Part shown: positions 1-61,799 of the stretch, piece by piece
Position numbering within the stretch: position 1 is the stretch's first letter
How the letters are laid out: each line of letters starts with the position of its first letter
From: Escherichia phage 55
DNA: 64,000 bases
Direction: 5' to 3' (one strand)
Sequence record: OQ599310
Notes under the pieces: model-generated
The model's database searches: none
What the model saw: only the letters and a program-made list of their open reading frames with translations
Told to the model about the DNA's origin: nothing
Made by a program: the position numbers and the translations under genes

Positions 1-402
1 AGTATGTACTTGAACACCGGGCATTATTCTCACGGTGATGCAGGATTCATTGCGCCTAATGATGTGTTGATTCATATTAGTCGTTCTGGTAAAACTGAAG
101 AAATGATAGGCGTGGCTAAGCATCTTAAAATGATTCGACCGAACGTCAAACAGATTCTGTTGCATTGTAACCCAGACATTCCACAAGAAAATGAAGCCCT
201 TTTTGATTACTCTTTCTGTACAGGCATCGCGGTAGAGGTTGATGAGAATTCTCTGGCTCCGACCATGTCCACTACATTGTTGTTAGCGCTTATCGATACG
301 TTTGCTATCAACCTTTCGTCTGAACGTGGATTTACCTCTAATGACTTCCTTAAGTTCCATCCAGGCGGTGCACTAGGTGCCATGTTACGAGGCGAGCAAT
401 GA
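1..402 (+). CDS. SIS-domain sugar-phosphate isomerase, KpsF/KdsD-like (arabinose-5-phosphate isomerase family); 5' end lies outside the window
   Basis: Translation aligns to the C-terminal half of the KdsD SIS domain (HGD.G, ISRSG, APT.STT, HPGGALG motifs); no CBS domains follow; the Met at 4 is internal to the alignment so the gene starts upstream. Confidence 0.7.
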   Translation, partial: SMYLNTGHYSHGDAGFIAPNDVLIHISRSGKTEEMIGVAKHLKMIRPNVKQILLHCNPDIPQENEALFDYSFCTGIAVEVDENSLAPTMSTTLLLALIDTFAINLSSERGFTSNDFLKFHPGGALGAMLRGEQ

Positions 403-542
403 AAGCAATAACAATAGGACTTTTACTATTGATGCTTGCCATGACTATCTACTGGAGCTTAACGGCTCCAGTAATGATTCCAACACTTGTAATTGGATGG
501 ATTATGATTGGTCTACAGGCAAAGTATGAATGCTTTAACTAG
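399..542 (+). CDS. small hydrophobic protein (47 aa, two predicted TM helices)
   Basis: ATG overlaps the stop of the upstream gene (ATGA); continuous ORF with strongly hydrophobic translation; below the ORF-track length cutoff. Confidence 0.3.
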   Translation: MKAITIGLLLLMLAMTIYWSLTAPVMIPTLVIGWIMIGLQAKYECFN

Positions 543-555
543 AATAGTGTACAAT
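531..555 (+). promoter_or_regulatory. candidate MotA-dependent middle promoter (MotA box TGCTTTA, then TACAAT -10 about 12 bp downstream)
   Basis: TGCTTTA at 531-537 and TACAAT at 550-555 upstream of the 584 ORF. Confidence 0.3.
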
Positions 556-583
556 ACACCTACTTACCAATGAGGACTTCAAC

Positions 584-2269
584 ATGAAAAAAGCTGTTAT
601 TCTTGGTGCTGGATTAGCAACTCGTTTATATCCAATTACTCACCATATTCCTAAGGTGCTTGTTAACTATAAACAAGACACTATTCTGAGCAATTTGTAT
701 ACAATTTATTCTGACCTTGGCGCAGATGAAATTATTGTAGTAGTTCATTCAAAATTTGCTGAAACTGTTCGAGCTTATTGTGAGCAAGAAGGGTTCAATG
801 TGACTATTCGTACAGTTGATGAAGCGTATGGATCTGCTTATGCTCTTGCTAAATTACACAAAGATTTAGACGGCCATAATGTAATTGTTAACTGGTGTGA
901 TATTATTCCTGATTTTGGTTCATGGTCTTGGAATGTCAACGCAATCTATGTTAAGGGTGATGAATGTCGATATAATTTCGACGGTGAAAATATCACTAAC
1001 GTAGGTTCAACAGGCGGTAATGTTGTAGGAATTTATCAGTTCAAAGACTGGGAATTCTATATGGGTTCTACCGATGAGGAAATTCATGAATACTGCAAAG
1101 GACGTGATTTCGTAGAATTCCTTTACAGCGGCGCATTCAATAAATCAGAGCTTATGAATATAATTGATTTAGGTGATATGCCTAAACTTGAAAAAGCTCA
1201 TGAAGTTCGTGAACTTAATCGTAGTTTTAATGCAGTTGAAATTGGTGAAGAAACTGTAACTAAATTCGCATTAACCGAACAGGGACGAGCTCTTCAGAAA
1301 GATGAGATTTCATGGTATTTGAAAGTGAAATCAGATTCAGTTCCTCAGTTAGTTTCTGTTAATGAAAACAATTTTGAAATGGAACGTATTAAAGGTAAGC
1401 CGGCATTTGAATATATTAAATCCAAATCAAGTCTTGCTCGTCCACAAATTGTTGATGCAATTTTAGATGCACTGAAATTCAGCACAGACACGTATTTTGT
1501 AAGTCCTGAAACTGTTCGTCGTGATTTCACTAAAGAATTCTATACGAAAGTTATTGATCGTTGTGAAAGCATTCAACCATTGATTGATTCATTTGGTAAA
1601 ATCACACATGTGAACTACACTAAGATTGGACGTCTGAAGCCAATGTTGAAACAAGCTTTAGAACATCTTATTCGTTATCATAACCGTTCTCAGGGACAGT
1701 ACTCTGTTATTCATGGTGACCCGAACTTCAGTAATACTATGATTACTGATAACGGCGAAGTCAAGTTTATCGACCCTCGTGGATATTTTGGCGAAACCAA
1801 GATTTACGGGCCAAAATTGTATGACGAAGCTAAAGTGCTTTATGCTGTTTCAGGTTATGATGAATTCAATGCTAATCCGACCTGGGGACAGTTTACTATT
1901 GATGAAACAACTTGTAATGTGACTATTAACATCAATCCATTAATTTACAAATATGGAAAGATGAGTTCGTTTAACGAGTATCATCATTTGGCGGTGGCAA
2001 TTATCTGGATTGCATTAGGTGGTTATTTCAAGAATAATCCACTTAAAGCGGTAGCCGCATATTATAAAGGTATGGAACTTCTGACTAAGCAATTACGTAA
2101 CATGGGCCGTGTACTTCAAGACGGCTCTATTAGTTATGACGTAGCAGAACCTGTAACGGCTACTCTGATTACAAAAAATCCTGGTAAATGGGTACTAACT
2201 GATAAAGAAACTGGTGTTTCCTATCGTCCAATCGGTGGCGATATCACTCACCAATGGGAACGAATCTAA
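584..2269 (+). CDS. bifunctional sugar-1-phosphate nucleotidyltransferase (N-terminal, RmlA/GalU-like) fused to APH/NahK-like anomeric sugar kinase (C-terminal)
   Basis: N-terminus ILGAGLATRLYPIT..PKVLV matches the G-x-G-T-R-L-Y-P-I-T nucleotidyltransferase signature; C-terminal region has HGDPNFSN catalytic loop and FIDPRG typical of aminoglycoside-phosphotransferase-fold kinases; GAGGA RBS upstream. Confidence 0.65.
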   Translation: MKKAVILGAGLATRLYPITHHIPKVLVNYKQDTILSNLYTIYSDLGADEIIVVVHSKFAETVRAYCEQEGFNVTIRTVDEAYGSAYALAKLHKDLDGHNVIVNWCDIIPDFGSWSWNVNAIYVKGDECRYNFDGENITNVGSTGGNVVGIYQFKDWEFYMGSTDEEIHEYCKGRDFVEFLYSGAFNKSELMNIIDLGDMPKLEKAHEVRELNRSFNAVEIGEETVTKFALTEQGRALQKDEISWYLKVKSDSVPQLVSVNENNFEMERIKGKPAFEYIKSKSSLARPQIVDAILDALKFSTDTYFVSPETVRRDFTKEFYTKVIDRCESIQPLIDSFGKITHVNYTKIGRLKPMLKQALEHLIRYHNRSQGQYSVIHGDPNFSNTMITDNGEVKFIDPRGYFGETKIYGPKLYDEAKVLYAVSGYDEFNANPTWGQFTIDETTCNVTININPLIYKYGKMSSFNEYHHLAVAIIWIALGGYFKNNPLKAVAAYYKGMELLTKQLRNMGRVLQDGSISYDVAEPVTATLITKNPGKWVLTDKETGVSYRPIGGDITHQWERI

Positions 2270-2655
2270 TGCACCGTGTAGAAAACATGCTTAATCTTTG
2301 TTTTGATGTCGATGATTGTATAACAGAGTGGAATAACAATCGTGATTACGTGAACTTCAAACCAGACGTCGAAATGGTGTCTGCCATTAATGCCTTGTAT
2401 GATGCAGGGCATACCATAACGCTTTACACTGCTCGCGGTATGAAGTCAGTAGGTCCCGGTCGTATAGCAATTGACATTCTCCCGAGTCTGATTCAGAACT
2501 TGGAAAACATTGGCTTGAAGTACCATAATTTGCTAACACATAAACCAGTATATGATTGGATTATCGACGACAAAGCTATGCGTCCTGACGAATTCAAAGC
2601 TCTTATGAATAAAGGCGAATTCGAAACATTTAAATCATATAAACCGAATCTATAA
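2254..2655 (+). CDS. HAD-superfamily phosphatase (small, resembling the phosphatase domain of polynucleotide kinase)
   Basis: Motifs CFDVDDCIT (motif I), AGHTITLYTARG, YDWIIDDKA parallel the pseT phosphatase-domain motifs [21 protein letters not shown] in the same window; alternative start at 2269 (TAATG overlap). Confidence 0.55.
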   Translation: MGTNLMHRVENMLNLCFDVDDCITEWNNNRDYVNFKPDVEMVSAINALYDAGHTITLYTARGMKSVGPGRIAIDILPSLIQNLENIGLKYHNLLTHKPVYDWIIDDKAMRPDEFKALMNKGEFETFKSYKPNL

Positions 2656-2709
2656 TAATTTAAGTAAGACCTGCAAAAACCATCGCATCAATTAACGCGA
2701 GATGCAAAA

Positions 2710-3870
2710 ATGAACACTTTTAAAATCGGAACGAATTTTGATTTAGCTCTTCTTGATAAAATCGTAGAGCTCAATAAAACCTATCCTAATAGCTTGATAA
2801 ACGAAGTATATGGCTCTACAAGAGAAATGGCTTTTGTAGCAGCCAGACCTGATTTTAGGCTTCCTGACGTTGACAAAAAGATGTTAGAAGACTACGTTAA
2901 ACGTTGTAACGAATTAGGTATTTGCTTTAACTATACACTCAACACGATAAATCCTGGTTCAAAAAGAGAACTAGTTGAGTGGAAGAAGAAAGCTATTCAG
3001 GATTATGTTCAGTATCTTTGGTCAATAGGCGTATGGCGTATTACTATCGCTAACCCTGTTGTTATGGAAATTGTTCGTGAAGTCAATAAAGATATTGAGA
3101 TTGAAGTTTCAACAATTCTACATGTCGATGCTGTAACTCAAATCAAATACTTGCACGACCAATATAACATCAAAAAAGTCTGTTGCGGAATTCATAAGAA
3201 CCGTTCAGTTTCTTTCCTGAAGCGTGCAGCAGAGTTTTGCAATAAGAACAATATAATATTTGAAGTTCTTGTAAATGAGTTCTGTTCTAATGCTGGTAAA
3301 GGGTATACAACACATTGTAGTTATCGTGACTCTTGCTATATTTTCCATAGTACTGATGTTACCGCTGATGATGCTAAATCCTTAAATGGATATCCAATGC
3401 AGCACTGTATTAAAGCTCGTGATACAGATCCATTTAACTGGTTGAGAACTCGTTTTGTTCGTCCTCAAGATTTGAAACTTTATAATGATATTGGTATCAC
3501 TCAATTCAAAGTTTCAGGACGTACAGGTAGCACAGACTACATTTTGAAAGTTCTTGAAGCATACGCTTCTGAAAAGTTTGAAGGTAATTTGTTAGAACTG
3601 TGGAAGCCTTTAGAGACTATTTTCACTCTTGAAAACGAAACTGAGTTTTCACATACAGTAAATATTGAAACCTCTTTGTTAGATGGCTTTTTAGAAAAAA
3701 GGTGGTTCAGACATCCAGATTTTGATTGTGCTAATGAAATCTGTGGGTCAACGTGTACATATTGTGAAAGGTATTATAAACGTCAATTATCTAAAAACGG
3801 GTTAGCAGAAAACTCCATATCTATTATTGATATAACTAGCTCTGATGACGCTTTGAGATACCCGGAATGA
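2710..3870 (+). CDS. Cys-rich protein with divergent peptidase-U32-like motifs (family that includes Fe-S dependent hydroxylases RlhA/TrhP/UbiU-V); function unknown
   Basis: Segments FNYTLNTI, EVLVNEFCSNAGKGYTTHCSYRDSC and FKVSGRTGSTDY resemble the U32 core and GR motifs; assignment is from memory of the family signature and is tentative. Confidence 0.4.
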   Translation: MNTFKIGTNFDLALLDKIVELNKTYPNSLINEVYGSTREMAFVAARPDFRLPDVDKKMLEDYVKRCNELGICFNYTLNTINPGSKRELVEWKKKAIQDYVQYLWSIGVWRITIANPVVMEIVREVNKDIEIEVSTILHVDAVTQIKYLHDQYNIKKVCCGIHKNRSVSFLKRAAEFCNKNNIIFEVLVNEFCSNAGKGYTTHCSYRDSCYIFHSTDVTADDAKSLNGYPMQHCIKARDTDPFNWLRTRFVRPQDLKLYNDIGITQFKVSGRTGSTDYILKVLEAYASEKFEGNLLELWKPLETIFTLENETEFSHTVNIETSLLDGFLEKRWFRHPDFDCANEICGSTCTYCERYYKRQLSKNGLAENSISIIDITSSDDALRYPE

Positions 3871-4106
3871 TTTCTAGAAAAAGTTTTAATTATAAACTTA
3901 ACGAAGAGATTTTGACTATGAAACTGAACACTAACGAACAAATTCTTAAAAAGGCCCTTATGGGCCTGTTTGAAACCAAAGCGGCTAAAGTGATTAAAGA
4001 ACCTGTTCAATTGGAATACTACACTGATGCATTCCTTCATAGTGTTCTTGGAAGTATAGATTCTGAAGCTTTACGTTATATCAACATTGCCAAGAAATTC
4101 AAATAA
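3867..4106 (+). CDS. hypothetical protein (79 aa)
   Basis: ORF with ATGA start overlap to upstream gene. Confidence 0.4.
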   Translation: MISRKSFNYKLNEEILTMKLNTNEQILKKALMGLFETKAAKVIKEPVQLEYYTDAFLHSVLGSIDSEALRYINIAKKFK

Positions 4107-4148
4107 GCTTTATGAATTGAGTATATAATAAATTGTATTGAGGTAAAC

Positions 4149-4865
4149 ATGGGAAAACATAACACAATGAAATATATCAAAGCCGCAGATTTTCAAACCG
4201 CATTTAAAGCAGTCAATCGTGAAATTTTAGAAAACCCGGAATTCGTAACCGATTCTCGTATTGGACGTTGTAATGAAATTGGGTCTATGACAGTAGTTGT
4301 TGACAATCCATCATCATTCAAAATGACCGACCCACGTATTAACCGCATCTCTTATGAATATGCCGAAGACTTCTGGAAGTTTATGATTTCTGGTGGTACT
4401 GATGCAGAAGAAGCGTTTAAGGCATATCCTAATGTCGCTAAATTTATTTCTAAACCTAAATCAGACGCTTTGCCTGCAAACTTCAACACTTTCTACGGTC
4501 CTCGCATTGCGGCCCAATTACCAGCTCTTCTAAAAGAACTTAAAGAGAAACCTAACTCTCGAAGAGTTGTGTTCCAAATTCTAGAAAGTTCTGATCAGGC
4601 TTTGCTTGATTCGGACGAAACACTTGAATATCCATGTACTGACTCAGTAACTTATTATATTCGTGATGGTAAGCTTTATACCCACTGCCATATGCGTTCT
4701 CAGAACTGTGCTGTTGTTATGCAGTTGGATTTTTATCTCCAAGGAAAATTACTTCATTATATCGCTAACGAATGCGGTGTAGAAGTTGGTGATTATACTC
4801 ATACCATGGTAAGTGCCCATGTGTTTGAACGTGATTTTGATTATGTTAAAGGATTCCTTGACTAA
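4149..4865 (+). CDS. 42: dCMP hydroxymethylase (thymidylate-synthase-fold), gene 42
   Basis: TS-family core YPCTD...GKLYTHCHMRSQN with Cys nucleophile; size 238 aa; sits upstream of uvsX as gene 42 does in T4. Confidence 0.7.
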   Translation: MGKHNTMKYIKAADFQTAFKAVNREILENPEFVTDSRIGRCNEIGSMTVVVDNPSSFKMTDPRINRISYEYAEDFWKFMISGGTDAEEAFKAYPNVAKFISKPKSDALPANFNTFYGPRIAAQLPALLKELKEKPNSRRVVFQILESSDQALLDSDETLEYPCTDSVTYYIRDGKLYTHCHMRSQNCAVVMQLDFYLQGKLLHYIANECGVEVGDYTHTMVSAHVFERDFDYVKGFLD

Positions 4866-5764
4866 TGGCTATTTTCCGCGTACCAATCTTGAGTATGCGG
4901 TCTTATGAAACTGGACAGTATGCTATCCTTAAGGATGGCAACTTCCAACTTCATTTGCACCGTGCTAATCCAGGTGATGTGATTACATATCCACGTAATG
5001 CATCTGATATTAAAGAATGCGAACGTCTTTTCCCAGAATTTAAGTTTGTTCCATTATGGTATAAAGATAACGCGTATAACACTCGTAAATATTTCTGGTC
5101 TGAAAATGAATTTGTGGTTGATTCATTAATTGCTTATTATGATTGTGATTTTCTAATCACAGATATCACCGGATATGACGGCGCTTTTGATGTTGAATTC
5201 AATTTCAATATCACTGCAGACCCTAATAAACCACGTTTTTATATTGACGAATTCTTAAAAACCGATATGTTGTCGGTTAATCGTTCACTTCAAACTACTG
5301 TGTTGAATGAACGTCAAAAAGAAGTGCTGGTTAACGCAGGTGCAGATGGTAATAAGATTATCGTAACGCAGAAAGTTATACGTCCTTCCATCATGCAGCG
5401 TCTTGTAGGTGATTTGGCCCCTATTCATCTAGATGGTATTTTTCATCCATTTCGAATTAGTGACCCATGCTATCGTTTTGAACAAGTGGTTGAATGTGCA
5501 ATTCAATTAGGTCAACCGCTTTATATAACCGATCCAAATAATAGTTTCGACAGAAATAAGTATCCTGAAGAAGCGCTGATTCGAATTTTTAAACCAACTA
5601 AAACTGAGTACTATCAAATTCTTAAAGGACGACCGAAGATTCAATATTTCGAAAATCCTGAAGAAGTATTCCATCCAGGTCTTGGCGAGTTCATCTACTT
5701 TAATGCTTTAATTTCTTCGCCGTATAATATACCTAAATACGAAGATGTCGTAATCGAGGAATAA
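4865..5764 (+). CDS. hypothetical protein occupying the locus of T4 beta-glucosyltransferase; candidate DNA-modifying transferase
   Basis: 299-aa ORF, TAATG overlap with gene 42; no similarity I can recognise to T4 beta-gt. Confidence 0.45.
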   Translation: MAIFRVPILSMRSYETGQYAILKDGNFQLHLHRANPGDVITYPRNASDIKECERLFPEFKFVPLWYKDNAYNTRKYFWSENEFVVDSLIAYYDCDFLITDITGYDGAFDVEFNFNITADPNKPRFYIDEFLKTDMLSVNRSLQTTVLNERQKEVLVNAGADGNKIIVTQKVIRPSIMQRLVGDLAPIHLDGIFHPFRISDPCYRFEQVVECAIQLGQPLYITDPNNSFDRNKYPEEALIRIFKPTKTEYYQILKGRPKIQYFENPEEVFHPGLGEFIYFNALISSPYNIPKYEDVVIEE

Positions 5765-5765
5765 A

Positions 5766-6314
5766 ATGGCTAAAATTATTTTAGTAGATGGCCCAGATAA
5801 TGCCGGTAAAACAACTTTCATTAATGACATAATGGAAATTAGTGAAAGATACGTAAAGATTGATTTCCCTAAACGAACAGTTGATGGACGTTTCGATGTT
5901 AAGTCTCGAAATGAAGTTGGTTGTTTCGAAACGATGTTGAATTATTTAGACCCTACTAAGATTTATCTGTTAGACCGTGGATATATTAGTAACTGGGTTT
6001 ATGGACGTATTCGACAAGATGCGGACTCTGTTCTTGATGTTTATGAGCAGGATTATGTTCGTCTTTGCCAAAACCATGATGTGTTCACAATTATTTTAAC
6101 ACGTAACGAAATGACTGAAAGTTTTGAAGACGACCTTATTACTTTGTCTTCATTCGGTTTTAATACAGTCATTTCACATTTTGAAGAGTTTGCAATTCAT
6201 AACAAAATCCAAACGTATCAATTACTTAATCATGATGGTGCTAACAAAGTTATAGGATTTAATGCAAGCGAACGTAATGGTTTGATTATAGAAATCATCA
6301 AATGGGCTCGTTAA
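5766..6314 (+). CDS. thymidylate-kinase-like P-loop nucleotide kinase
   Basis: P-loop VDGPDNAGKTT and LDRGYISNWVYG resembling the TMK DR(Y/H)..S..AYQ motif. Confidence 0.5.
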   Translation: MAKIILVDGPDNAGKTTFINDIMEISERYVKIDFPKRTVDGRFDVKSRNEVGCFETMLNYLDPTKIYLLDRGYISNWVYGRIRQDADSVLDVYEQDYVRLCQNHDVFTIILTRNEMTESFEDDLITLSSFGFNTVISHFEEFAIHNKIQTYQLLNHDGANKVIGFNASERNGLIIEIIKWAR

Positions 6315-6332
6315 GAGCCATTTAAAGTTTTA

Positions 6333-6359
6333 AATGCTGTATAACCCTTAGTATATAAT
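6333..6359 (+). promoter_or_regulatory. candidate middle (MotA-type) promoter upstream of uvsX
   Basis: TGCTGTA (near MotA box) followed about 12 bp later by TATATAAT. Confidence 0.3.
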
Positions 6360-6412
6360 CATCTTATCTTTTAAACATGAGTAAAATATAATGACGCCTA
6401 TGGAAAAATACA

Positions 6413-7585
6413 ATGTCTGATTTAAAATCTCGTCTGATTAAAGCTTCTACTTCTAAAATGACTGCAGACTTGACTAAGTCTAAGCTGTTTAATAATCGTG
6501 ATGAAGTCCCTACTCGTATTCCGATGTTGAATATCGCACTAGGTGGTGCTCTGAATGCAGGATTGCAATCAGGCTTGACTATTTTTGCTGCACCTTCTAA
6601 ACATTTTAAAACATTGTTTGGACTAACTATGGTTGCAGCGTATATGAAGAAATATAAAGATGCAATCTGTTTGTTCTATGACTCAGAATTTGGTGCTTCA
6701 GAATCTTATTTTCGTTCAATGGGTGTTGATTTAGACCGTGTAGTTCATACACCAATTCAGTCCGTCGAACAACTTAAAGTTGATATGACTAATCAGCTTG
6801 ACGCGATTGAACGCGGTGATAAAGTTATTATCTTTATCGATTCAATCGGTAATACTGCATCTAAGAAAGAAACCGAAGATGCATTGAACGAGAAAGTCGT
6901 AGGTGATATGTCTCGTGCTAAGGCACTTAAATCTCTGTTCCGTATTGTGACCCCGTATCTGACTATTAAAGATATTCCATGTGTTGCAATTAACCATACA
7001 GCAATGGAAATCGGCGGACTATATCCTAAAGAGATTATGGGTGGTGGTACAGGTATTCTTTACTCTGCTAACACTGTATTCTTTATCTCTAAACGTCAGG
7101 TTAAAGAAGGTACAGAATTGACCGGTTATGACTTCACGTTGAAAGCAGAAAAATCTCGTACAGTTAAAGAAAAATCTACTTTCCCAATCACAGTTAATTT
7201 TGATGGTGGTATCGACCCATTCAGTGGCTTGTTAGAAATGGCAACTGAAATTGGATTTGTTGTTAAGCCTAAAGCCGGGTGGTACGCTCGCGAATTCCTT
7301 GACGAAGAAACAGGCGAAATGATTCGTGAAGAGAAATCGTGGCGTGCTAAAGCTACTGATTGTGTAGAATTCTGGGGACCTTTGTTTAAACACAAACCTT
7401 TCAGAGATGCAATTGAAACTAAATATAAACTAGGTGCTATCTCTTCTATTAAAGAAGTTGATGACGCTGTTAACGACCTTATTAATTGCAAAGCAACAAC
7501 TAAAGTTCCTGTTAAAGCTTCTGATGCTCCGTCTGCAGCAGATATTGAAAACGACCTTGACGAAATGGAAGATTTCGATGAATAA
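6413..7585 (+). CDS. uvsX: UvsX RecA-like recombinase
   Basis: 390 aa; near-identity over long stretches with T4 UvsX (MSDLKSRLIKASTSK..., FVVKPK.GWYAREFLDEETGEMIREEKSWRAK). Confidence 0.95.
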   Translation: MSDLKSRLIKASTSKMTADLTKSKLFNNRDEVPTRIPMLNIALGGALNAGLQSGLTIFAAPSKHFKTLFGLTMVAAYMKKYKDAICLFYDSEFGASESYFRSMGVDLDRVVHTPIQSVEQLKVDMTNQLDAIERGDKVIIFIDSIGNTASKKETEDALNEKVVGDMSRAKALKSLFRIVTPYLTIKDIPCVAINHTAMEIGGLYPKEIMGGGTGILYSANTVFFISKRQVKEGTELTGYDFTLKAEKSRTVKEKSTFPITVNFDGGIDPFSGLLEMATEIGFVVKPKAGWYAREFLDEETGEMIREEKSWRAKATDCVEFWGPLFKHKPFRDAIETKYKLGAISSIKEVDDAVNDLINCKATTKVPVKASDAPSAADIENDLDEMEDFDE

Positions 7586-7919
7586 TCTCGATGATTTAAA
7601 TCTAGAAATCGTTGATGAATCCCCTTCTTCGGAAGGGGAAGACATTCGCAAAGAACGAGTGTTTAATGAATCTCTTAAAATTATCCGTTCAGCAATGGAA
7701 AATGTCATTCAAGAGATTCTGATTACACTTGAAGATGGTTCTCATCATATAGTCTATATTACAAAACTAGACTGGGTTGATGGTAAAATCGTAATGGACT
7801 TTGCAGTTCTTGACCAGGACAGAAAAGCAGAACTTGCACCGCATGTTGAAAAATGTGTTACAATGCAAGTACAACAAGCTTTTAATGAACGGGCCAAGAA
7901 AAAATTTAAATTCTTTTAA
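7578..7919 (+). CDS. 40: gp40 head vertex assembly chaperone
   Basis: 114-aa ORF starting at ATG overlapping uvsX stop (ATGAATAA); position between uvsX and 41 as in T4. Confidence 0.55.
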   Translation: MNNLDDLNLEIVDESPSSEGEDIRKERVFNESLKIIRSAMENVIQEILITLEDGSHHIVYITKLDWVDGKIVMDFAVLDQDRKAELAPHVEKCVTMQVQQAFNERAKKKFKFF

Positions 7920-7928
7920 GGAGTTATC

Positions 7929-9371
7929 GTGGTAGAAATTATTTTGTCTCATCTAGTATATGACCAGGCTTATTTTTCTAAGGTCTGGCCTTATATGGAT
8001 TCTGATTACTTTGAGCGTGGACCGGCAAAAAACGTCTTTAAAATTATAAAGAGCCACGTTAACGAATATAATGCAATGCCATCTATCAATGCATTAAAGG
8101 TGGCTTTAGATAACAGTTCTTTAACTGAAGCTGAATATAAAGGAACTTCAGACCTAATTGAAAAATTGGCTGATACTCCTGAAGACCATGAATGGCTGGT
8201 TAAAGAAACTGAGAAATATGTCCAGCAAAAAGCGATGTATAATGCTACATCCAAAATCATTGAGATTCAGTCTAATGCTGAACTACCTCCAGAACAACGT
8301 AACAAGAAAATGCCTGACGTAGGAGCTATTCCTGATATTATGCGTCAAGCACTTTCAATTTCGTTCGATAGTTATGTTGGACATGACTGGATGGAAGACT
8401 ACGAAGCACGCTGGCTTTCTTATCTAAATAAAGCACGTAAGGTCCCGTTCAAATTAAACATTTTGAATAAAATCACCAAAGGCGGTGCAGAAACAGGTAC
8501 ACTAAACGTTTTAATGGCTGGTGTTAACGTTGGTAAATCTTTAGGCCTTTGTTCACTTGCTGCAGATTATCTTCAAACAGGACATAATGTTCTTTATATT
8601 TCCATGGAAATGGCTGAAGAAGTTTGTGCTAAGCGTATAGATGCAAATATGCTTGACGTATCGCTCGATGATATCGATGATGGTAACGTATCTTATGCTG
8701 AATATAAAGCCAAGATGGAAAAATGGCGTTCAAAATCCACATTAGGACGTTTAGTAGTTAAACAGTATCCTACCGGCGGAGCTAATGCTAATACATTCCG
8801 TGCATTGCTTAATGAATTGAAACTCAAGAAGAACTTTGTGCCATCTGTAATCATGGTTGATTACTTAGGTATTTGTGGGTCTTGTCGTATCAGAGTTTAC
8901 ACTGAAAATAGCTACACATTAGTTAAAGCTATCGCAGAAGAACTTCGTGCATTAGCAGTAGAATCTGAAACAGTTCTATGGACTGCAGCTCAAGTAGGAC
9001 GTGCAGCATGGGATGCTTCGGACATGAACATGAGTGATATCGCAGAATCAGCAGGTTTACCAGCAACGGCAGATTTCATGTTGGCCGTAATTGAAACCGA
9101 AGAACTTGCACAAGCTGAACAACAACTTATCAAACAAATCAAATCACGATATGGCGATAAGAATAAGTGGAACAAGTTCTTGATGGGTGTACGTAAAGGC
9201 AACCAGAAATGGATTGAGATTGAGCAAGAAGGCGTGAACACCCCTAACACCGTAAATGAAAACGCAGGTGCTCAGATGCGTCAGGCAGAGGTGAATCGTA
9301 CGGAACGCGTAGGTAAAGCCAAAGCAACACGTGCTGACCTAGATAGCTTAGCCAATGAGTTAAAATTTTAA
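7929..9371 (+). CDS. 41: gp41 replicative DnaB-like helicase
   Basis: N-terminus MVEIILSHL..DQAYFSKVWPYMDS matches T4 gp41; Walker A GVNVGKS. Confidence 0.95.
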   Translation: MVEIILSHLVYDQAYFSKVWPYMDSDYFERGPAKNVFKIIKSHVNEYNAMPSINALKVALDNSSLTEAEYKGTSDLIEKLADTPEDHEWLVKETEKYVQQKAMYNATSKIIEIQSNAELPPEQRNKKMPDVGAIPDIMRQALSISFDSYVGHDWMEDYEARWLSYLNKARKVPFKLNILNKITKGGAETGTLNVLMAGVNVGKSLGLCSLAADYLQTGHNVLYISMEMAEEVCAKRIDANMLDVSLDDIDDGNVSYAEYKAKMEKWRSKSTLGRLVVKQYPTGGANANTFRALLNELKLKKNFVPSVIMVDYLGICGSCRIRVYTENSYTLVKAIAEELRALAVESETVLWTAAQVGRAAWDASDMNMSDIAESAGLPATADFMLAVIETEELAQAEQQLIKQIKSRYGDKNKWNKFLMGVRKGNQKWIEIEQEGVNTPNTVNENAGAQMRQAEVNRTERVGKAKATRADLDSLANELKF

Positions 9372-14341: not shown

Positions 14342-14863
14342 ATGGCACACTTTAACGAATGTTCACAACTTATTTCTGGTGTTGATAAAGCAGAAGAAGC
14401 TTATTTTAATGCTCTGATTCACGAAGATAAAGACCCACTGCAGGTAATGCTTGATATGCAGAAATCTTTACAGGTTCGTCTGGCAAATGACAAGCCTGAA
14501 CATAACAAACATCCTGATGAATTGGCTACTGCTGGTGATGTTGTTGATTGGCTGCGTAATCAGAAAGATTATATTGATGATGAATTCCGTGAACTGCTGA
14601 CTTCACTTGGTGGTATGAGCAATGGTGAAAAAGCCGCTAGCTCTGTATGGAAGCCATGGAAAGCACAACATGCTGAATATCGTAATCGTCGTATTGATGA
14701 ACTGTCTCCTGAAGACCAACTGGAAATTAAGTTTGAAATGATTGATATTCTCCATTTCGTTCTGAACATGTTCCAAGGTCTTGGTCTTACAGCAGAAGAA
14801 ATCTTTAAACTTTATTACCTGAAAAATGCTGAAAATTTCGCACGTCAAGACCGAGGTTATTAA
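14342..14863 (+). CDS. 56: dCTP pyrophosphatase (dCTPase-dUTPase), gene 56
   Basis: MAHFNEC...PLQVMLDMQ...ETAGDVVDW...EIFKLYYLKN..NFARQDRGY matches T4 gp56. Confidence 0.85.
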   Translation: MAHFNECSQLISGVDKAEEAYFNALIHEDKDPLQVMLDMQKSLQVRLANDKPEHNKHPDELATAGDVVDWLRNQKDYIDDEFRELLTSLGGMSNGEKAASSVWKPWKAQHAEYRNRRIDELSPEDQLEIKFEMIDILHFVLNMFQGLGLTAEEIFKLYYLKNAENFARQDRGY

Positions 14864-23922: not shown

Positions 23923-24332
23923 TGGCTAATAAATTCCGCATTAACTCATGGTACCAATTTAAAGATAAACGTGCCCAAGAAGAGTTTATTAAAGACCATA
24001 CTGATAATGGGATTTATGCACGACGTCTTGGCCTGGAACCATTTAAAGTATTAGATGTTGACCATCTTGGTCGTCCTACTAAAATTGTGACATCTACTGG
24101 CATGGTTGGATACGCAACAGGCGGTGATATCCTTGATGAAAACTTTATCTGGCTCTCCACGAATGAAGCAGAGTTCTTTGACGAAGTTGGAAATCCATAT
24201 CAAGAGTCTGAAGAGCAAGATTCTAGTGAACTTGGTGAATTGTCTGAATTTCCGGTGATGTCGATTACTATCGAAAATAACGACCAGGCATGGTCTTTGT
24301 ATCAAATGTTGAAAGCACATTTTAAGGAATAA
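23922..24332 (+). CDS. hypothetical acidic protein
   Basis: TAATG overlap. Confidence 0.45.
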
Positions 24333-24337
24333 TAATA

Positions 24338-24517
24338 ATGCCGTTATACGACTATAAATGTCAATCTGAAGATTGTGGTCATGAATATGAAAAAATTAAA
24401 AGAATTTCTGAACGAGAAAACGATGTTTGCCCTGAATGTCATCGTCTGTCTACTCGTCGGGTTTCTGCTCCTAAACATGTGAACGGTGGTTTTTACGACT
24501 TACTTAAGAAGGGATAA
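24338..24517 (+). CDS. FmdB-like zinc-ribbon protein (59 aa)
   Basis: MPLYDYKC..CGH...CPEC pattern; below ORF-track cutoff. Confidence 0.45.
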   Translation: MPLYDYKCQSEDCGHEYEKIKRISERENDVCPECHRLSTRRVSAPKHVNGGFYDLLKKG

Positions 24518-24519
24518 TT

Positions 24520-24942
24520 ATGGCTTTTAAAGGTTTTGAAGTTGGTAAGAAATATCGTATTATCAAAGGTCAAGAAGATAATTTCTTGAGAATTCTTAAT
24601 ACAACTGGTAAACGTCTTAACACTACTCTGCATACAGTTTTATTATCAAGAGATTTTATTGTAGAAGAGATGATTGGTTACGGTGTTTCAATGATTGCCG
24701 CTGAAACCGATGGACCTGGACGTACAATCATTAGTATGCAAGGTGATATTCTGCTTTATGGTGCAGAATTTAAATTCTTTGAAGAAGTTAAGGAACCAGA
24801 TACAGCTGTCGATTTCAAAAAAGGCTCTATAGAATTTGTTGATGGTTCGGTTATCGTATCAGGCGATGTGGTCATTACAGTTAAAAGTGAACAAGGGCGT
24901 TTGGCTGCAATTGATGCACTTCAGAAAATTAAATTTAAATAA
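24520..24942 (+). CDS. hypothetical protein
   Basis: 140-aa ORF followed by terminator. Confidence 0.5.
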   Translation: MAFKGFEVGKKYRIIKGQEDNFLRILNTTGKRLNTTLHTVLLSRDFIVEEMIGYGVSMIAAETDGPGRTIISMQGDILLYGAEFKFFEEVKEPDTAVDFKKGSIEFVDGSVIVSGDVVITVKSEQGRLAAIDALQKIKFK

Positions 24943-24960
24943 GGGCTTCGGCCCTTTTTG
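24941..24960 (+). terminator. rho-independent terminator
   Basis: GGGCTTCGGCCC then TTTTT. Confidence 0.7.
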
Positions 24961-25005
24961 CTTTAGATTTCGGATGATAGAATACCTTCATAACGAGGAG
25001 ACAAC

Positions 25006-26823
25006 ATGATTAAAAATGAAATTAAGGTATTGTCAGATGTAGAACATATTAAGAAACGTAGTGGTATGTATATTGGTTCTTCTGCTAAAGAAGCCCACGA
25101 GCGTTTTTTGTTTGGTAAATATCAACAAGTTGAATATGTTCCTGGCCTGGTTAAATTAATCGATGAGATTATTGACAACTCGGTTGATGAAGCTATTCGT
25201 ACATCATTTAAGTTTGCAAATAAAATTGATGTGCAAATTAAAAATAATCAAGTTTCGGTGGAAGATAACGGACGTGGTATTCCTCAAGGTTTAGTTACCG
25301 ACCAAACAGGTGAACAAATTCCTGGGCCTGTAGCAGCCTGGACTATTCCAAAGGCCGGTGGTAACTTTGGTGATGATTCTGAACGCAAGACTGGTGGTAT
25401 GAACGGCGTCGGGAGTAGTTTAACTAATATCTTCTCTACGTTGTTTACAGGCATCACGTCAGATGGCGAAAATGAAATCACTGTTAACTGTTCAAACGGA
25501 ATGGAAAACAAATCATGGTCTTCTAAGAAATCTAAAGGTAAAGGCACTAAAGTAATCTTCACTCCTGATTTCACTTCATTTGAAGAGCATAATTTATCTC
25601 AAATTTATTTAGATATTACTTTAGACCGACTTCAAACATTGGCAGTCGTTTATCCTGATATCAAGTTCACATTTAATGGTAAAAAGGTTGATGGTAATTT
25701 TAAACGATTTGCTAAACAATTTGGTGAAGATAACATCATTCAAGAAAATGATAAAGTCTCTATAGCATTCACAACATCACCAGATGGCTTCCGTCATTTA
25801 ACTTATGTGAATAACATCCATACTAAAAATGGTGGTCATCATGTTGAATGTGTAATGGATGATATCTGCGAACATCTTTTGCCGGGTATTAAAAAGAAAT
25901 ATAAGGGTATTGAAGTCACTAAAGCTCGTGTTAAAGAATGTCTCACAATGTTGATGTTTATTAGAGACATGAGCAACATGCGTTTTGATTCTCAGACTAA
26001 AGAACGTTTAACGTCAACGTATGGTGATATTCGTAATCATATCCAATTAGATACTAAGAAAATTGCTCAGGCACTTCTTAAAAACGAAGCCTTGATTATG
26101 CCTATTGTTGAAGCAGCATTAGCTCGTAAATTGGCGGCAGAAAAGGCTGCAGAAACTAAAGCAGCTAAAAAGGCAACTAAAGCTAAGGTTCATAAGCATA
26201 TTAAAGCTAACCAATGTGGTAAAGATGCAGATACGACATTGTTTTTAACAGAAGGTGATTCGGCAATTGGTTATCTCATTGATGTTCGTGACCGTGAACT
26301 ACACGGTGGATTCCCATTACGTGGTAAGGTGATGAATAGCTGGGGTATGTCATATGCTGATATGATGAAGAACAAAGAGCTCTTTGATATCTGTGCTATC
26401 ACGGGTCTTATTCTTGGTGAAAAGGCAGAGAATACGAACTATCGTAATATTGCAATTATGACTGATGCCGATCATGACGGTCTTGGAAGCATTTATCCGG
26501 CTTTGCTTGCTTTCTTTAGTAATTGGCCTGAATTGTTTGAACAAGGACGTATTCGCTTTGTTAAAACACCTGTAATTATTGCACAAATTGGCAAAACTCA
26601 AAAATGGTTTTATACTGTAGCTGAGTATGAAGAAGTTAAAGATACACTGCCTAAGCATAGTATTCGATACATCAAGGGATTAGGCTCACTTGAAAAGTCA
26701 GAATATCGTGAAATGATTCAGAACCCTGTGTACGACGTAGTTAAACTTCCTGAAAATTGGAAAGAACTCTTTGAAATGTTGATGGGTGATGATTCAGAAC
26801 TTCGTAAAGAATGGATGTCCTAA
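25006..26823 (+). CDS. 39: topoisomerase II large (ATPase, GyrB-like) subunit, uninterrupted gene 39 (covers T4 39+60)
   Basis: 605 aa; GHKL ATPase motifs IDNSVDEA, GRGIP; TOPRIM region; single continuous ORF. Confidence 0.9.
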   Translation: MIKNEIKVLSDVEHIKKRSGMYIGSSAKEAHERFLFGKYQQVEYVPGLVKLIDEIIDNSVDEAIRTSFKFANKIDVQIKNNQVSVEDNGRGIPQGLVTDQTGEQIPGPVAAWTIPKAGGNFGDDSERKTGGMNGVGSSLTNIFSTLFTGITSDGENEITVNCSNGMENKSWSSKKSKGKGTKVIFTPDFTSFEEHNLSQIYLDITLDRLQTLAVVYPDIKFTFNGKKVDGNFKRFAKQFGEDNIIQENDKVSIAFTTSPDGFRHLTYVNNIHTKNGGHHVECVMDDICEHLLPGIKKKYKGIEVTKARVKECLTMLMFIRDMSNMRFDSQTKERLTSTYGDIRNHIQLDTKKIAQALLKNEALIMPIVEAALARKLAAEKAAETKAAKKATKAKVHKHIKANQCGKDADTTLFLTEGDSAIGYLIDVRDRELHGGFPLRGKVMNSWGMSYADMMKNKELFDICAITGLILGEKAENTNYRNIAIMTDADHDGLGSIYPALLAFFSNWPELFEQGRIRFVKTPVIIAQIGKTQKWFYTVAEYEEVKDTLPKHSIRYIKGLGSLEKSEYREMIQNPVYDVVKLPENWKELFEMLMGDDSELRKEWMS

Positions 26824-26846
26824 GCTCCTTCGGGAGCTTCATTTTA
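26823..26846 (+). terminator. stem-loop AGCTCCTTCGGGAGCT after gene 39
   Basis: hairpin with UUCG loop, T-rich tail. Confidence 0.5.
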
Positions 26847-26865
26847 ATTTTAATAAGGCTTAATT

Positions 26866-27966
26866 ATGAAAGTTATGTTTATCCCATCTCGTGCAGTCCC
26901 ATTTAATCCTGACCGTGTACAAGGTGGTCTTGAAGCAGTACATTTAAATGTGTTGAAATATTTAGTTTCTATCGGTGCCGATATTGATTATATTGGTTTT
27001 GATAATGACACATTTGGTGATTGGAAGGTTAATCATCATCCTGTTGGTCATCTGACTAAATTCAGTCTAGGTATGAGTTATACTATGGCTCGTAAGATTG
27101 TTGAACTAGCCGGCATCCATGAATACGATTTTGTTGTTACTATGGAACCGACTAAACTAACCGTTCAGGCAATTAAAGACGCAGGTCTCTCTAAAGTTCA
27201 TAAGAATTTTATGGCAACACCATTTGAACCGGTATCTCGTGGCATTGTTCAAATTTGGGACCAGACTATTCAAATTCATAAGAACGGTGGTAAGAGTTAT
27301 GCTCCTACTAAAGCCTTCCGTGAATTTGAACGTAAATATTGTTATATGACTTCAGGTCTGACTGACAAAATTGATTATGATTATTGGCGAGCAAATCCGT
27401 TGTTTGAAGCCGAAGATTATCCGGTTATTTGTTTGAATGAGAAACCTGAAGTTCTTCCGGCGACTGATCTGATTATTAGTGCACAACGTTATGACACTAA
27501 AATGCGTCGTACTGATGTTGCTCTTGAAGCGATTAAAGCACTAGGCGAAAATGGTGCAGGATACTGTCCTAGTAAATGGGCACCACCAGCTAAATATCCT
27601 GTTATTATTGATGCTCCACACAGTGAAATTATGGAACGTCTTAAAACAGCTAAAGCACTTATTAATACGTGTCCTGACACAGGTACGGTAGAGAATAGTT
27701 CTATTGAAGCCATCTCTAAAGGTGTCCCTGTAATCCAGCTAGTTTTTAAGGATTATCCTCATGCGACATTTGAATACGACCCAGATACTGTGCGTGTAGA
27801 AATTGATTCCTCTACTCCTAAGAAAGAAGTAGTTGCGCTTTACACAAAAGCTGTATTAGAATTCACTGACACATACGAAGCTCGAGTTAAACGTGCTGAA
27901 GCAGTATGGAAGAAGTATAACCGAGATGCGGTTGTTGCGATGTGGGATAAAATCTTCACAGCGTAA
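26866..27966 (+). CDS. candidate GT-B fold glycosyltransferase (possible DNA hmC glycosyltransferase)
   Basis: N-terminus MKVMFIPSRA...GG and C-terminal GTVENSSIEAISKGVPVIQ resemble GT4-type motifs; lies between gene 39 and rIIA. Confidence 0.5.
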   Translation: MKVMFIPSRAVPFNPDRVQGGLEAVHLNVLKYLVSIGADIDYIGFDNDTFGDWKVNHHPVGHLTKFSLGMSYTMARKIVELAGIHEYDFVVTMEPTKLTVQAIKDAGLSKVHKNFMATPFEPVSRGIVQIWDQTIQIHKNGGKSYAPTKAFREFERKYCYMTSGLTDKIDYDYWRANPLFEAEDYPVICLNEKPEVLPATDLIISAQRYDTKMRRTDVALEAIKALGENGAGYCPSKWAPPAKYPVIIDAPHSEIMERLKTAKALINTCPDTGTVENSSIEAISKGVPVIQLVFKDYPHATFEYDPDTVRVEIDSSTPKKEVVALYTKAVLEFTDTYEARVKRAEAVWKKYNRDAVVAMWDKIFTA

Positions 27967-28058
27967 ATCCTGAATCGCCTGAGGCACTATTACACATAAG
28001 ATGATAGATTATATGGTCTTTAGTAATAGTGCCCTAGGAATCTACTGAAGAGAATATT

Positions 28059-28259
28059 ATGAGAACATATAACGTGGACTTGGAACTTTTTGATAAAGCA
28101 GTGCTCCGGGAATTCCGGCTTATCCAAAGATTTTTTGATATCGAGTCAGCAGAGTCCTTTAAAGAACGCTTTAAAGAAATTCGATATAAAATACAAACCG
28201 ATACAGCTACTAAAGAAGAACTTCTTGAAGTAGCAGAAATTTTTAAACGTAACTTGTGA
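28059..28259 (+). CDS. hypothetical small protein
   Basis: 66-aa ORF. Confidence 0.35.
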   Translation: MRTYNVDLELFDKAVLREFRLIQRFFDIESAESFKERFKEIRYKIQTDTATKEELLEVAEIFKRNL

Positions 28260-28271
28260 TGAGAGAAAAAT

Positions 28272-59646: not shown

Positions 59647-60057
59647 ATGAAAGATATTGCCGCCGAATATTCCTTTATTAAATATACAGAATTGGAGCTA
59701 TTAGAAGATGCAACAATTAAAACAGTTGATGTCCCTAATAAGAAAAATGTCATATATGCTATTGCTATAGACGATGAACTTGTGTATATTGGTAAAACCA
59801 AGAATTTAAAGAAACGCATTAACTATTATCGAACAGCCATAAATCGAAAAGACCAGACTTCAGATTCAAGAAAATCACTTATGATTTTGGATGCCTTAAT
59901 GCAAGGCAAAAAGGTTGAATTCTGGGCCCGCCAATGTTTTGACCTTTCAGTCACCAACGAACTTGGTTCAATGACCATCGCAACAATGGACCTTGAAGAA
60001 CCGCTTTTTATCAAAAAGTTCAACCCGCCTTGGAATATCCAACATAAGAAAAAGTAG
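59647..60057 (+). CDS. denA: endonuclease II (GIY-YIG family)
   Basis: 136 aa; position after nrdB; VIYAIAIDDELVYIGKT GIY-YIG-like. Confidence 0.75.
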   Translation: MKDIAAEYSFIKYTELELLEDATIKTVDVPNKKNVIYAIAIDDELVYIGKTKNLKKRINYYRTAINRKDQTSDSRKSLMILDALMQGKKVEFWARQCFDLSVTNELGSMTIATMDLEEPLFIKKFNPPWNIQHKKK

Positions 60058-61298: not shown

Positions 61299-61799
61299 AT
61301 GAATATGCAATTGATTACTAACGATATGGTCGTAACCGCTTTTGGAGACACAACTGACGGAATCCGGGTCTTTAAGAAAGGACGTCCAGTTGGTTATCTT
61401 ACTGACCTACGTGTTACACTGGCCAAAAATCTTAAAAAGAAAGTAAAACAAAAAGAGTATTCCACCCGATACGTTGAAGAGAAACGTGAAGCAATGCCGG
61501 AAGCAGTTAATGCTATGGTAGAATTTCTTCAAAACAATTTGACTAAATATGACGCTAATGTGTTCATTAATATTAGTCAACCAAACGTACATATCGCAGG
61601 TATAAAATTCTACATTATTTGCGACCCTCTTACTGACAAATTTAATCGTCTTGGAATCTCAAGTCCATATCATACAGCAGAAGAGTTGTGTGTATTGTTT
61701 GAATCATACAAAATCCAGTGTGATGGGCCTAAAACGGTTCTTATCAATGGATTATCCCGAGACGAAATCATTGAGATTATTCAAACATGCTTAAAGTAA
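61299..61799 (+). CDS. alc: Alc-like protein (assignment by position)
   Basis: 166 aa directly after gene 63 as alc is in T4; no motif-level confirmation. Confidence 0.45.
   Translation: MNMQLITNDMVVTAFGDTTDGIRVFKKGRPVGYLTDLRVTLAKNLKKKVKQKEYSTRYVEEKREAMPEAVNAMVEFLQNNLTKYDANVFINISQPNVHIAGIKFYIICDPLTDKFNRLGISSPYHTAEELCVLFESYKIQCDGPKTVLINGLSRDEIIEIIQTCLK

Follow-up and report, generated by a model that had tools for sequence, protein, structure and literature searches.

A predicted arabinosyl-5-hydroxycytosine DNA modification cluster in an RB69-like phage, and a candidate function for its U32-family protein

The first 6,314 nucleotides of a 64,000-nucleotide stretch of Escherichia phage 55 (sequence record OQ599310; hereafter the window) carry a run of co-directional genes, tightly packed with overlapping or 1-2-nt junctions (2254/2269; 3867/3870; 4865/4865; 5764/5766), which very probably represent the hypermodification cluster by which an RB69-like Mosigvirus makes arabinosyl-5-hydroxycytosine DNA. 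A preliminary description of the window had read the region as a self-contained pathway to a nucleotide-activated pentose that feeds glycosylation of 5-hydroxymethylcytosine (hmC). All open reading frames (ORFs) named there are confirmed, on the + strand and at the coordinates given below; two small ORFs of 36 and 79 amino acids (aa) had been missed, and the U32-family protein had been given no role. The cluster consists of the following genes, where TS stands for thymidylate synthase and dCMP for deoxycytidine monophosphate:

1..402, + strand: 3' part of the SIS isomerase gene (133 C-terminal aa; the gene starts upstream of the window)
432..542, + strand: small hydrophobic ORF, 36 aa, homolog of RB69 ORF054c
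584..2269, + strand: nucleotidyltransferase-kinase, 561 aa, of the RB69 ORF53_52c and HY126 AfhE type
2254..2655, + strand: HAD-type phosphatase, 133 aa, of the RB69 gp51 and HY126 AfhF type
2710..3870, + strand: U32-family TIM-barrel protein, 386 aa, RB69 gp50
3867..4106, + strand: 79-aa ORF, RB69 gp49, overlapping the U32 stop codon by ATGA
4149..4865, + strand: predicted 5-hydroxy-dCMP synthase of the TS superfamily, 238 aa, RB69 gp48
4865..5764, + strand: GT-B glycosyltransferase, 299 aa, RB69 gp47 and gp46 as one ORF
5766..6314, + strand: P-loop thymidylate-kinase-like nucleotide kinase, 182 aa, RB69 gp45

The closest known systems, treated by Thomas et al. 2018 (PMC6024577), Mahler et al. 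2025, He et al. 2026 and Lee et al. 2026 (PMC13326640), are the gp45-gp55 genes of RB69, together with gp3, and the Afh cluster of phage HY126, which contain the same genes in the same order. Region 1-6314 is Mosigvirus DNA, with 97.7% identity to RB69 coordinates 23961-30364 and 98% identity to many other Mosigvirus genomes. Protein by protein, identity to RB69 gp45-gp55 is 90-100%, and the PDB has near-identical HY126 sequences for the TS homolog, the HAD enzyme and a 366-aa glycosyltransferase encoded at a distance from the cluster. The order of SIS, 561-aa and HAD genes is also that of RB69, LC53, Entb_45 and Kimel. There is essentially no difference from RB69, other than that the ORFs corresponding to 53/52 and 47/46 are intact in the window (561 and 299 aa). 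The RB69 reference splits ORF053c/052c and ORF047c/046c (3585-5271 and 7868-8768 of its locus, L001), where the window and most relatives have single ORFs; the splits have been attributed to sequencing errors (PMC6024577, PMC13326640), and the intact ORFs of the window agree with that view.

Which base does this cluster modify? The acceptor is predicted to be 5-hydroxycytosine (5hoC), not hmC, because the TS homolog (4149-4865) corresponds to RB69 gp48 (100% identity in the alignment), bears the D169N signature and lies far from T4 gp42 (only 25% identity over 218 aa). Aligned at E. coli ThyA D169, the window protein reads 'RSQN...QLD' where ThyA has 'RSCD...PFN' and T4 gp42 'RSND...RND', and its full signature is D169N, N177D and L143E. 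Three PDB entries from phage HY126 (9iqc, 9ir2 and 9iqu) match it at E 2e-161. A tblastn search with the protein at E 1e-8 retrieved 5hoC-type phages of Acinetobacter, Rhizobium and Agrobacterium; T4-type phages were not among the matches at that threshold. The protein is neither orthologous to gp42 nor does it keep the Asp found there at the D169 position, and its earlier designation as gene 42 has to be given up. In E. coli, expression of RB69 gp48 leads to 5-hydroxydeoxycytidine, with 18O from 18O2 incorporated and flavin co-purifying with the protein, and Asn at the ThyA D169 position marks those TS-superfamily enzymes that form 5-hydroxy-dCMP (PMC13326640). We accordingly name the homolog, on the strength of the activity shown for the identical RB69 protein, a flavin- and O2-dependent 5-hydroxy-dCMP synthase. 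In the same source, nucleoside analysis of RB69 DNA revealed arabinosyl-5-hydroxycytosine, and nuclear magnetic resonance (NMR) and mass spectrometry (MS) showed its cytosines to be 5-hydroxycytosine carrying one or two arabinoses, with an ether bond at C5 (PMC13326640).

An older model, dating from 2018 and shared by the preliminary description, has gene 42 encode a dCMP hydroxymethylase, so that the sugar is placed on hmC, and has the HAD enzyme release free arabinose for an anomeric kinase. Thomas et al. 2018 indeed found arabinose in RB69 DNA and proposed arabinosyl-hmC, for which ORF055c and ORF53_52c would provide UDP-arabinose and ORF003c would be the transferase (PMC6024577), and the N177D and L143E changes of the TS homolog also occur in hydroxymethylases. 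However, if the homolog were a hydroxymethylase, we would expect neither the D169N change and the distance from T4 gp42, nor that RB69 gp48 makes 5-hydroxy-dCMP with incorporation of 18O2, nor the ether link to 5-hydroxycytosine that NMR and MS show in RB69 DNA. The kinase, moreover, is reported to act on arabinose 5-phosphate (Ara5P) rather than on free arabinose (He et al. 2026, as relayed in PMC13326640). We consider the older model highly improbable. The underlying idea of a phage-encoded arabinose pathway is nonetheless already published, having been proposed for RB69 in 2018 (PMC6024577) and revised and partly reconstituted in 2025-2026.

The sugar-activation genes tell a compatible story in the form of an SIS isomerase, a bifunctional nucleotidyltransferase-kinase and a HAD phosphatase encoded together. 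The SIS fragment contains the motif 'HPGGALG', is 100% identical to residues 79-211 of RB69 gp55 and matches TIGR00393 KpsF/GutQ (E 7e-23), KdsD (E 1e-21) and phrog_5670 (E 3e-77). With the gene truncated by the window edge, it reaches 77 bits against the KdsD equivalog model, whose cut-off is 505, and full-length RB69 gp55 has 211 aa and is without the CBS pair of KdsD; the protein works like KdsD without being a KdsD equivalog. Residues 3-99 of the 561-aa enzyme match NTP_transferase PF00483 (E 8e-10) and residues 308-409 give weak protein-kinase-like matches that fall below the Pfam cut-offs. The enzyme as a whole belongs to phrog_4098 (E 1e-294), is 98.9% identical to its RB69 counterpart and is not a MurU equivalog (24.8 bits against a cut-off of 250). 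The 133-aa HAD protein matches the capsule biosynthesis phosphatase family TIGR01689 (E 2e-13) and, in the PDB, 9iqw from phage HY126 (E 4e-87) and 1xpj (E 1.5e-10); it is 98% identical to RB69 gp51.

How these enzymes divide the work is known from HY126. According to He et al. 2026, as relayed in PMC13326640, AfhE phosphorylates Ara5P to arabinose 1,5-bisphosphate, AfhF then removes the 5-phosphate to leave arabinose 1-phosphate, and AfhE turns this and UTP into UDP-arabinofuranose, the C-terminal domain of AfhE performing the kinase step and the N-terminal domain the nucleotidyltransferase step. Carried over to the near-identical window proteins, the SIS enzyme would, by homology, supply Ara5P from ribulose 5-phosphate, and the 561-aa enzyme and HAD phosphatase would take it through arabinose 1,5-bisphosphate and arabinose 1-phosphate to UDP-arabinofuranose. 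Much of the preliminary description survives here: profile hidden Markov model (HMM) searches bear out the SIS, nucleotidyltransferase-kinase, HAD, U32-like and TMK-like family assignments, and a phage-encoded route from ribulose 5-phosphate to nucleotide-activated arabinose, feeding glycosylation of a modified cytosine, is supported. What changes, on the same relayed account, is the sequence of steps. Dephosphorylation had been placed before 1-phosphorylation, the reverse of the reported order in which the kinase acts on Ara5P first and the HAD enzyme second, and the intermediate is arabinose 1,5-bisphosphate instead of free arabinose. The likeness to AmgK/MurU and NahK salvage and to KdsD/GutQ lies in the combination of kinase with nucleotidyltransferase and in an SIS isomerase for Ara5P. 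Because free arabinose is not an intermediate, the AmgK/MurU analogy is architectural only, the kinase of the window type being reported to use Ara5P and not a free sugar.

The step from activated sugar to DNA falls to two proteins for which the preliminary description had suggested a glycosyltransferase role, an assignment now supported by GT-B matches and by PMC13326640 (Table 1), where gp46:47 and gp3 of RB69 are listed as predicted arabinosyltransferases. From sequence and modelled fold, the 299-aa protein is the predicted base-proximal arabinosyltransferase and the 366-aa protein (26866-27966) a predicted second arabinosyltransferase. The latter is 99% identical to RB69 ORF003c and matches HY126 structures 9iqz/9ir0 in the PDB (E 8e-250). 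Predicted GT-B DNA arabinosyltransferases, a feature of the RB69/HY126 Afh-type cluster, are present in the window. Phage glycosyltransferases supplied with UDP-arabinofuranose extended arabinosyl-5hoC DNA in vitro (PMC13326640). One published result sits less easily with this assignment: single glycosyltransferases were inactive on 5hoC DNA, and the first transfer, by the 299-aa type, was not reconstituted (PMC13326640).

Could the sugar genes instead serve mimicry of the host surface, making Kdo or other precursors of capsule or lipopolysaccharide rather than a DNA modification? The best family matches, to KdsD/KpsF and to a 'capsule biosynthesis phosphatase', would fit such a role, as would GenBank annotations of genes of this kind as phosphoheptose isomerase or capsule protein. 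But the sugar genes are interleaved with those for the 5-hydroxy-dCMP synthase, a nucleotide kinase and DNA glycosyltransferases in an arrangement conserved across many genera, and the in vitro use of UDP-arabinofuranose on DNA is hard to square with a capsule pathway. We give this alternative next to no weight.

Arabinosylation of 5-hydroxycytosine would also involve genes elsewhere in the window:

14342..14860, + strand: gp56 dCTPase, 100% identical to RB69 gp56
26866..27966, + strand: GT-B glycosyltransferase, 366 aa, RB69 ORF003c and the HY126 glycosyltransferase
59647..60054: denA, present in the window
61305..61796: alc, present in the window

The TS homolog would hydroxylate dCMP at C5 with O2 and flavin, gp56 would remove dCTP so that the modified cytosine replaces C, and, to judge by homology and fold, the 299-aa protein would put the first arabinose on the 5-hydroxyl and the 366-aa protein would add the second. 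Together, gp56, denA and alc would eliminate unmodified cytosine or act selectively against it. That 56, denA and alc are present was correctly noted before; they fit any cytosine-replacing modification, however, not hmC in particular, and the '42' once listed with them is the TS homolog discussed above.

Comparison with T4 is instructive. Both systems employ a TS-superfamily enzyme that modifies C5 of dCMP, a dCTPase, denA, alc and GT-B enzymes acting on the base, and both lie at the site bounded by gene 43 and uvsX; the earlier placement of the cluster in the T4 beta-gt slot, between 42 and uvsX, is likewise supported. In the window, however, the hydroxyl would be put directly on C5 with flavin and O2, whereas T4 attaches a hydroxymethyl group derived from methylene-tetrahydrofolate, and the window phage would make its own sugar donor, arabinofuranose, where T4 uses host UDP-glucose (gp42, gp56, alpha-gt, beta-gt). 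Nearer in chemistry are Rhizobium phage RL38J1 and the Pootjesviridae with hexosyl-5-hydroxycytosine, which share the D169N TS homolog, GT-B transferases and a TMK-like kinase, but use galactofuranose and glucose and have a UDP-galactopyranose mutase instead of SIS, AfhE and AfhF genes. No U32 protein from RL38J1 or the Pootjesviridae was found among the phage-database matches.

Having accounted for sugar, base and transfer, we turn to the U32 protein (2710-3870; RB69 gp50), the remaining piece of an otherwise published cluster. It matches Peptidase_U32 PF01136 (E 7e-11; 42.2 bits against a gathering cut-off of 22.4), and its AlphaFold2 model (mean per-residue confidence, pLDDT, 90.8) is a TIM barrel whose closest fold in the PDB is the U32 protein 5d88 (E 1e-7). 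A sequence search of the PDB gave no match, and BFVD returned only fragments of the same protein. Ten cysteines are invariant in a 35-member subfamily alignment (C158, C177, C192, C203, C209, C233, C340, C345, C349 and C352). A profile alignment places 'YRDSC209Y' on 'YSGQC176Y' of RlhA; compared by hhalign with single E. coli paralogs, the U32 profile reaches probabilities below 10%, too low to be informative, and a plain MAFFT alignment of five U32-family proteins is unreliable in the cysteine region. Residues 340-352 (3727-3767) form the invariant CANEICGSTCTYC (CX4CX3CX2C), which contains a radical-SAM-like CX3CX(aromatic)C triad. This C-terminal cysteine group suggests a second metal or iron-sulphur (Fe-S) site, absent from E. 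coli UbiU and TrhP.

Characterised members of the family are hydroxylases. RlhA makes ho5C2501 in 23S rRNA, TrhP makes ho5U34 in tRNA, and UbiU/V hydroxylate ubiquinone precursors; all act without O2 and depend on prephenate, Fe-S clusters are bound by UbiU/V and required by RlhA and TrhP, and each has an O2-dependent alternative in E. coli (PMC5727448, PMC6599085, PMC6747719, PMC10990095). PMC13326640 refers to the RlhA and TrhP pathways solely as having no relation to the TS-type enzyme. The phage cluster resembles the resulting pairs (UbiI/H/F-UbiU/V, TrhO-TrhP, RlhA) in holding both a flavin/O2 hydroxylase and a U32 Fe-S-type protein, with chorismate mutase, which makes prephenate, sitting between the two genes in relatives of the window. 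It differs in that the U32 substrate would be a deoxynucleotide or DNA rather than RNA or a quinone, and in the cysteine spacing and second C-terminal cysteine cluster of the window protein. We tentatively propose, at somewhat short of an even chance, that the U32 protein hydroxylates C5 of a cytosine or other pyrimidine deoxynucleotide, with a need for prephenate but not for O2.

The genomic company kept by U32 genes is what suggests the use of prephenate, because they repeatedly adjoin genes for chorismate mutase and DAHP synthase. We examined 46 viral U32 loci by HMM searches (41 from IMG/VR and 5 metagenomic; 15 Straboviridae and 31 others; numbered with the prefix L) as well as a collection of 50,697 phage records. 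A chorismate mutase (CM_2) above the Pfam cut-off follows U32, or the gp49-like ORF, in Entb_45, LC53 and PM2; this mutase occurs in 51 records of the collection, always between U32 and the TS homolog. Among the 46 loci, a CM_2 protein, a DAHP synthase or a fusion of the two, confirmed with Pfam/NCBIfam models, abuts U32 in 25; such a prephenate-pathway gene stands beside U32 in 13 of the 15 Straboviridae loci and in 12 of the 31 others. Outside Straboviridae the neighbour is a monofunctional CM_2 in L043, L046-48 and L051-52; beside U32 we also find DAHP synthase::CM_2 fusions (L039, L040, L041 and L050) and DAHP synthase alone (L013 and L029). As an alternative, the PF00793 neighbour might have been a KDO8P synthase, which would tie it to Ara5P. 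That identity was rejected: with DAHP synthase models the scores are 163-237 bits, with KDO8P synthase models 53-63, and four such proteins are fused to CM_2.

Other neighbours belong to nucleotide or sugar pathways. Several U32 neighbourhoods are devoted to deoxynucleotide metabolism (dCMP deaminase, TMK, deoxynucleoside kinase (dNK), NT5C, nucleoside deoxyribosyltransferase and uracil-DNA glycosylase (UDG)). A homolog of the 299-aa glycosyltransferase is present in 22 of the 31 non-Straboviridae loci, often abutting U32, and AfhE-like, SIS and HAD genes recur among these loci, L044 carrying SIS, AfhE, HAD and U32 in RB69 order. The TS-family model matches in 15/15 Straboviridae loci; within 10 kb of U32, a TS homolog was found in none of the 31 non-Straboviridae loci. 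Across genera U32 is the most or second most conserved cluster protein, with 82-90% identity where the 561-aa enzyme has 42-72%. That enzyme was found in 371 phage records, 57 of them from Acinetobacter, and U32 in 221, yet not one of the 57 Acinetobacter records with arabinose genes has U32. Acinetobacter is an obligate aerobe.

We infer that the simplest reading of these patterns is a prephenate-dependent hydroxylase that supplies a 5-hydroxypyrimidine deoxynucleotide. As an Fe-S hydroxylase, U32 would make the same 5-hydroxypyrimidine nucleotide without O2 and so allow DNA modification in anoxic hosts. Where Straboviridae infect facultative anaerobes, it would complement, as an anaerobic enzyme, the TS-type 5-hydroxy-dCMP synthase encoded two genes downstream, whereas many other phages (jumbo and PolIII-alpha phages) would owe to it alone the hydroxyl that carries the DNA sugars; several of these have their own chorismate mutase, DAHP synthase or both, which would make more of the oxygen donor available. 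Paired enzymes of this sort have a precedent in T4-like phages, which carry both the aerobic NrdAB and the anaerobic NrdDG reductases. In the searchable literature, which does not cover He 2026 and Mahler 2025 (either of which may assign U32 another role), we found nothing that connects phage DNA hydroxylation with U32, prephenate or chorismate mutase.

Several observations weigh against a prephenate-dependent base hydroxylase. Neither chorismate mutase nor DAHP synthase was found in the 64-kb window, and RB69 is without them too; prephenate would therefore have to come from host PheA and TyrA. The cluster of JS98-type coliphages has no U32. TS homologs of the metagenomic phages may lie beyond the 10-kb flanks. 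Four invariant cysteines fall in the region of the family's [4Fe-4S]-binding motif, but their spacing, C192-x10-C203-x5-C209-x23-C233, departs from the pattern CX6CX15CX3-4C. Finally, gp50 appears in PMC13326640 only under the label 'sugar or heterocycle reductase'.

Imagine, then, that U32 were no base hydroxylase at all, and acted as a reductase on a sugar or some other heterocycle, or as a protease. Its steadiest partners outside Straboviridae are indeed the AfhE-like, SIS and HAD sugar genes, and both the deviant cysteine motif and the extra C-terminal CX4CX3CX2C cluster would be at home in a protein of another function. If U32 were needed to make the sugar donor, however, UDP-arabinofuranose synthesis should not be complete without it, as it is in the Acinetobacter and JS98-type phages that have no U32; AfhE and AfhF suffice in the relayed account of He et al. 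2026. Nor is any sugar reductase known among U32 proteins; the recurrent neighbours chorismate mutase and DAHP synthase speak for a use of prephenate, and other neighbourhoods (dCMP deaminase, dNK, NT5C, TMK) belong to deoxynucleotide metabolism. We regard a role other than base hydroxylation as unlikely, if by no means negligible. An RNA substrate is a different matter: U32 might hydroxylate host or phage tRNA or rRNA, like TrhP and RlhA, and have nothing to do with DNA modification. All pyrimidine hydroxylations known for the family are on RNA, and T4-like phages carry tRNA genes, which gives the suggestion some substance. Yet the phage protein, at 386 aa, lacks the C-terminal extensions seen in TrhP (453 aa) and RlhA (653 aa), and in unrelated phages its gene sits among DNA-glycosylation genes and is inherited together with them, which makes an RNA role decidedly improbable.

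Individual loci illustrate how varied the surroundings of U32 can be. JS98 (L007, 5000-10200), a Dhakavirus, has no SIS, U32 or chorismate mutase gene, and its TMK-like gene precedes the TS homolog; the Dhakavirus cluster presumably depends on host KdsD/GutQ for Ara5P. Two loci of PolIII-alpha phages, one of them a 466-kb contig, have U32 directly after dCMP deaminase (L009, 7447-9939; L012, 6504-8826) in the vicinity of UDG, TMK, single-stranded DNA-binding protein and a radical SAM/SPASM protein, with no sugar-activation genes within 7-8 kb of U32; here the U32 target may be a uracil nucleotide. L010 (8001-14360) places U32 among genes of nucleoside salvage (NT5C, an NMN-transporter family protein, dNK and nucleoside deoxyribosyltransferase), and also holds a radical SAM/SPASM gene and another U32-like gene that is highly diverged, at 22% identity. 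The order in L014 (5495-13179) is a TMK-like gene, the 299-aa glycosyltransferase homolog, U32, a TET-associated glycosyltransferase (PF20691, 33.9 bits) and a dUTPase/DCD-family gene, with UDP-galactopyranose mutase further on; its sugar genes recall galactofuranosyl-5hoC of the RL38J1 type, and no TS homolog lies within 7 kb.

Three smaller genes complete the cluster. The 182-aa kinase has the P-loop 'GPDNAGKTT', belongs to phrog_761, thymidylate kinase (E 8e-45), with a weak TIGR00041 match, and is 98% identical to RB69 gp45; its homologs adjoin a glycosyltransferase or U32 gene in distant phages. The 36-aa ORF (432-542) encodes a very hydrophobic peptide, 35/36 identical to RB69 ORF054c, and is kept between the SIS and 561-aa genes; its LC53 equivalent, in the same place, is annotated as a transmembrane segment. 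The 79-aa ORF (3867-4106; gp49) belongs to phrog_8601 (E 2e-50), has no other family match and is never mentioned in PMC13326640. Shorter homologs lie between U32 and chorismate mutase in PM2, TG1, fHe-Yen9-01 and one uncultivated virus genome (UViG), and gp49 may be a U32 accessory factor. We also considered whether it might be a diverged chorismate mutase and rejected the idea: there is no CM_2 match even at E 10, identity to phage chorismate mutases is 13-18%, and gp49-like and CM_2 genes are separate neighbours in those same four genomes. As for expression, a scan of 1-6500 for sigma-70 promoters and terminators stayed at chance level (24 observed, 23.5 expected). Such a generic sigma-70 scan does not model MotA-box promoters, and upstream of the 5-hydroxy-dCMP synthase gene (4104-4130) we note AAGCTTTA, 10 nt and then TATAAT, which resembles a T4 MotA-box middle promoter.

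In practical terms, the value of these results is correct annotation: RB69-like phages, many of them candidates for therapy, carry arabinosyl-5-hydroxycytosine DNA, a modification that changes how sensitive they are to restriction, CRISPR and type IV systems. These phages infect gut bacteria, although the known hydroxylase requires O2; an anaerobic U32 route, if true, would explain why U32 ranks at the top in conservation. The protein would also be without precedent, both as a U32 hydroxylase in DNA metabolism and as a viral enzyme with prephenate for its oxygen donor. It would take prephenate-dependent hydroxylation beyond RNA and quinones to the precursors of DNA, and it would mark many uncultured phages as carrying O-glycosylated bases made without a TS homolog.

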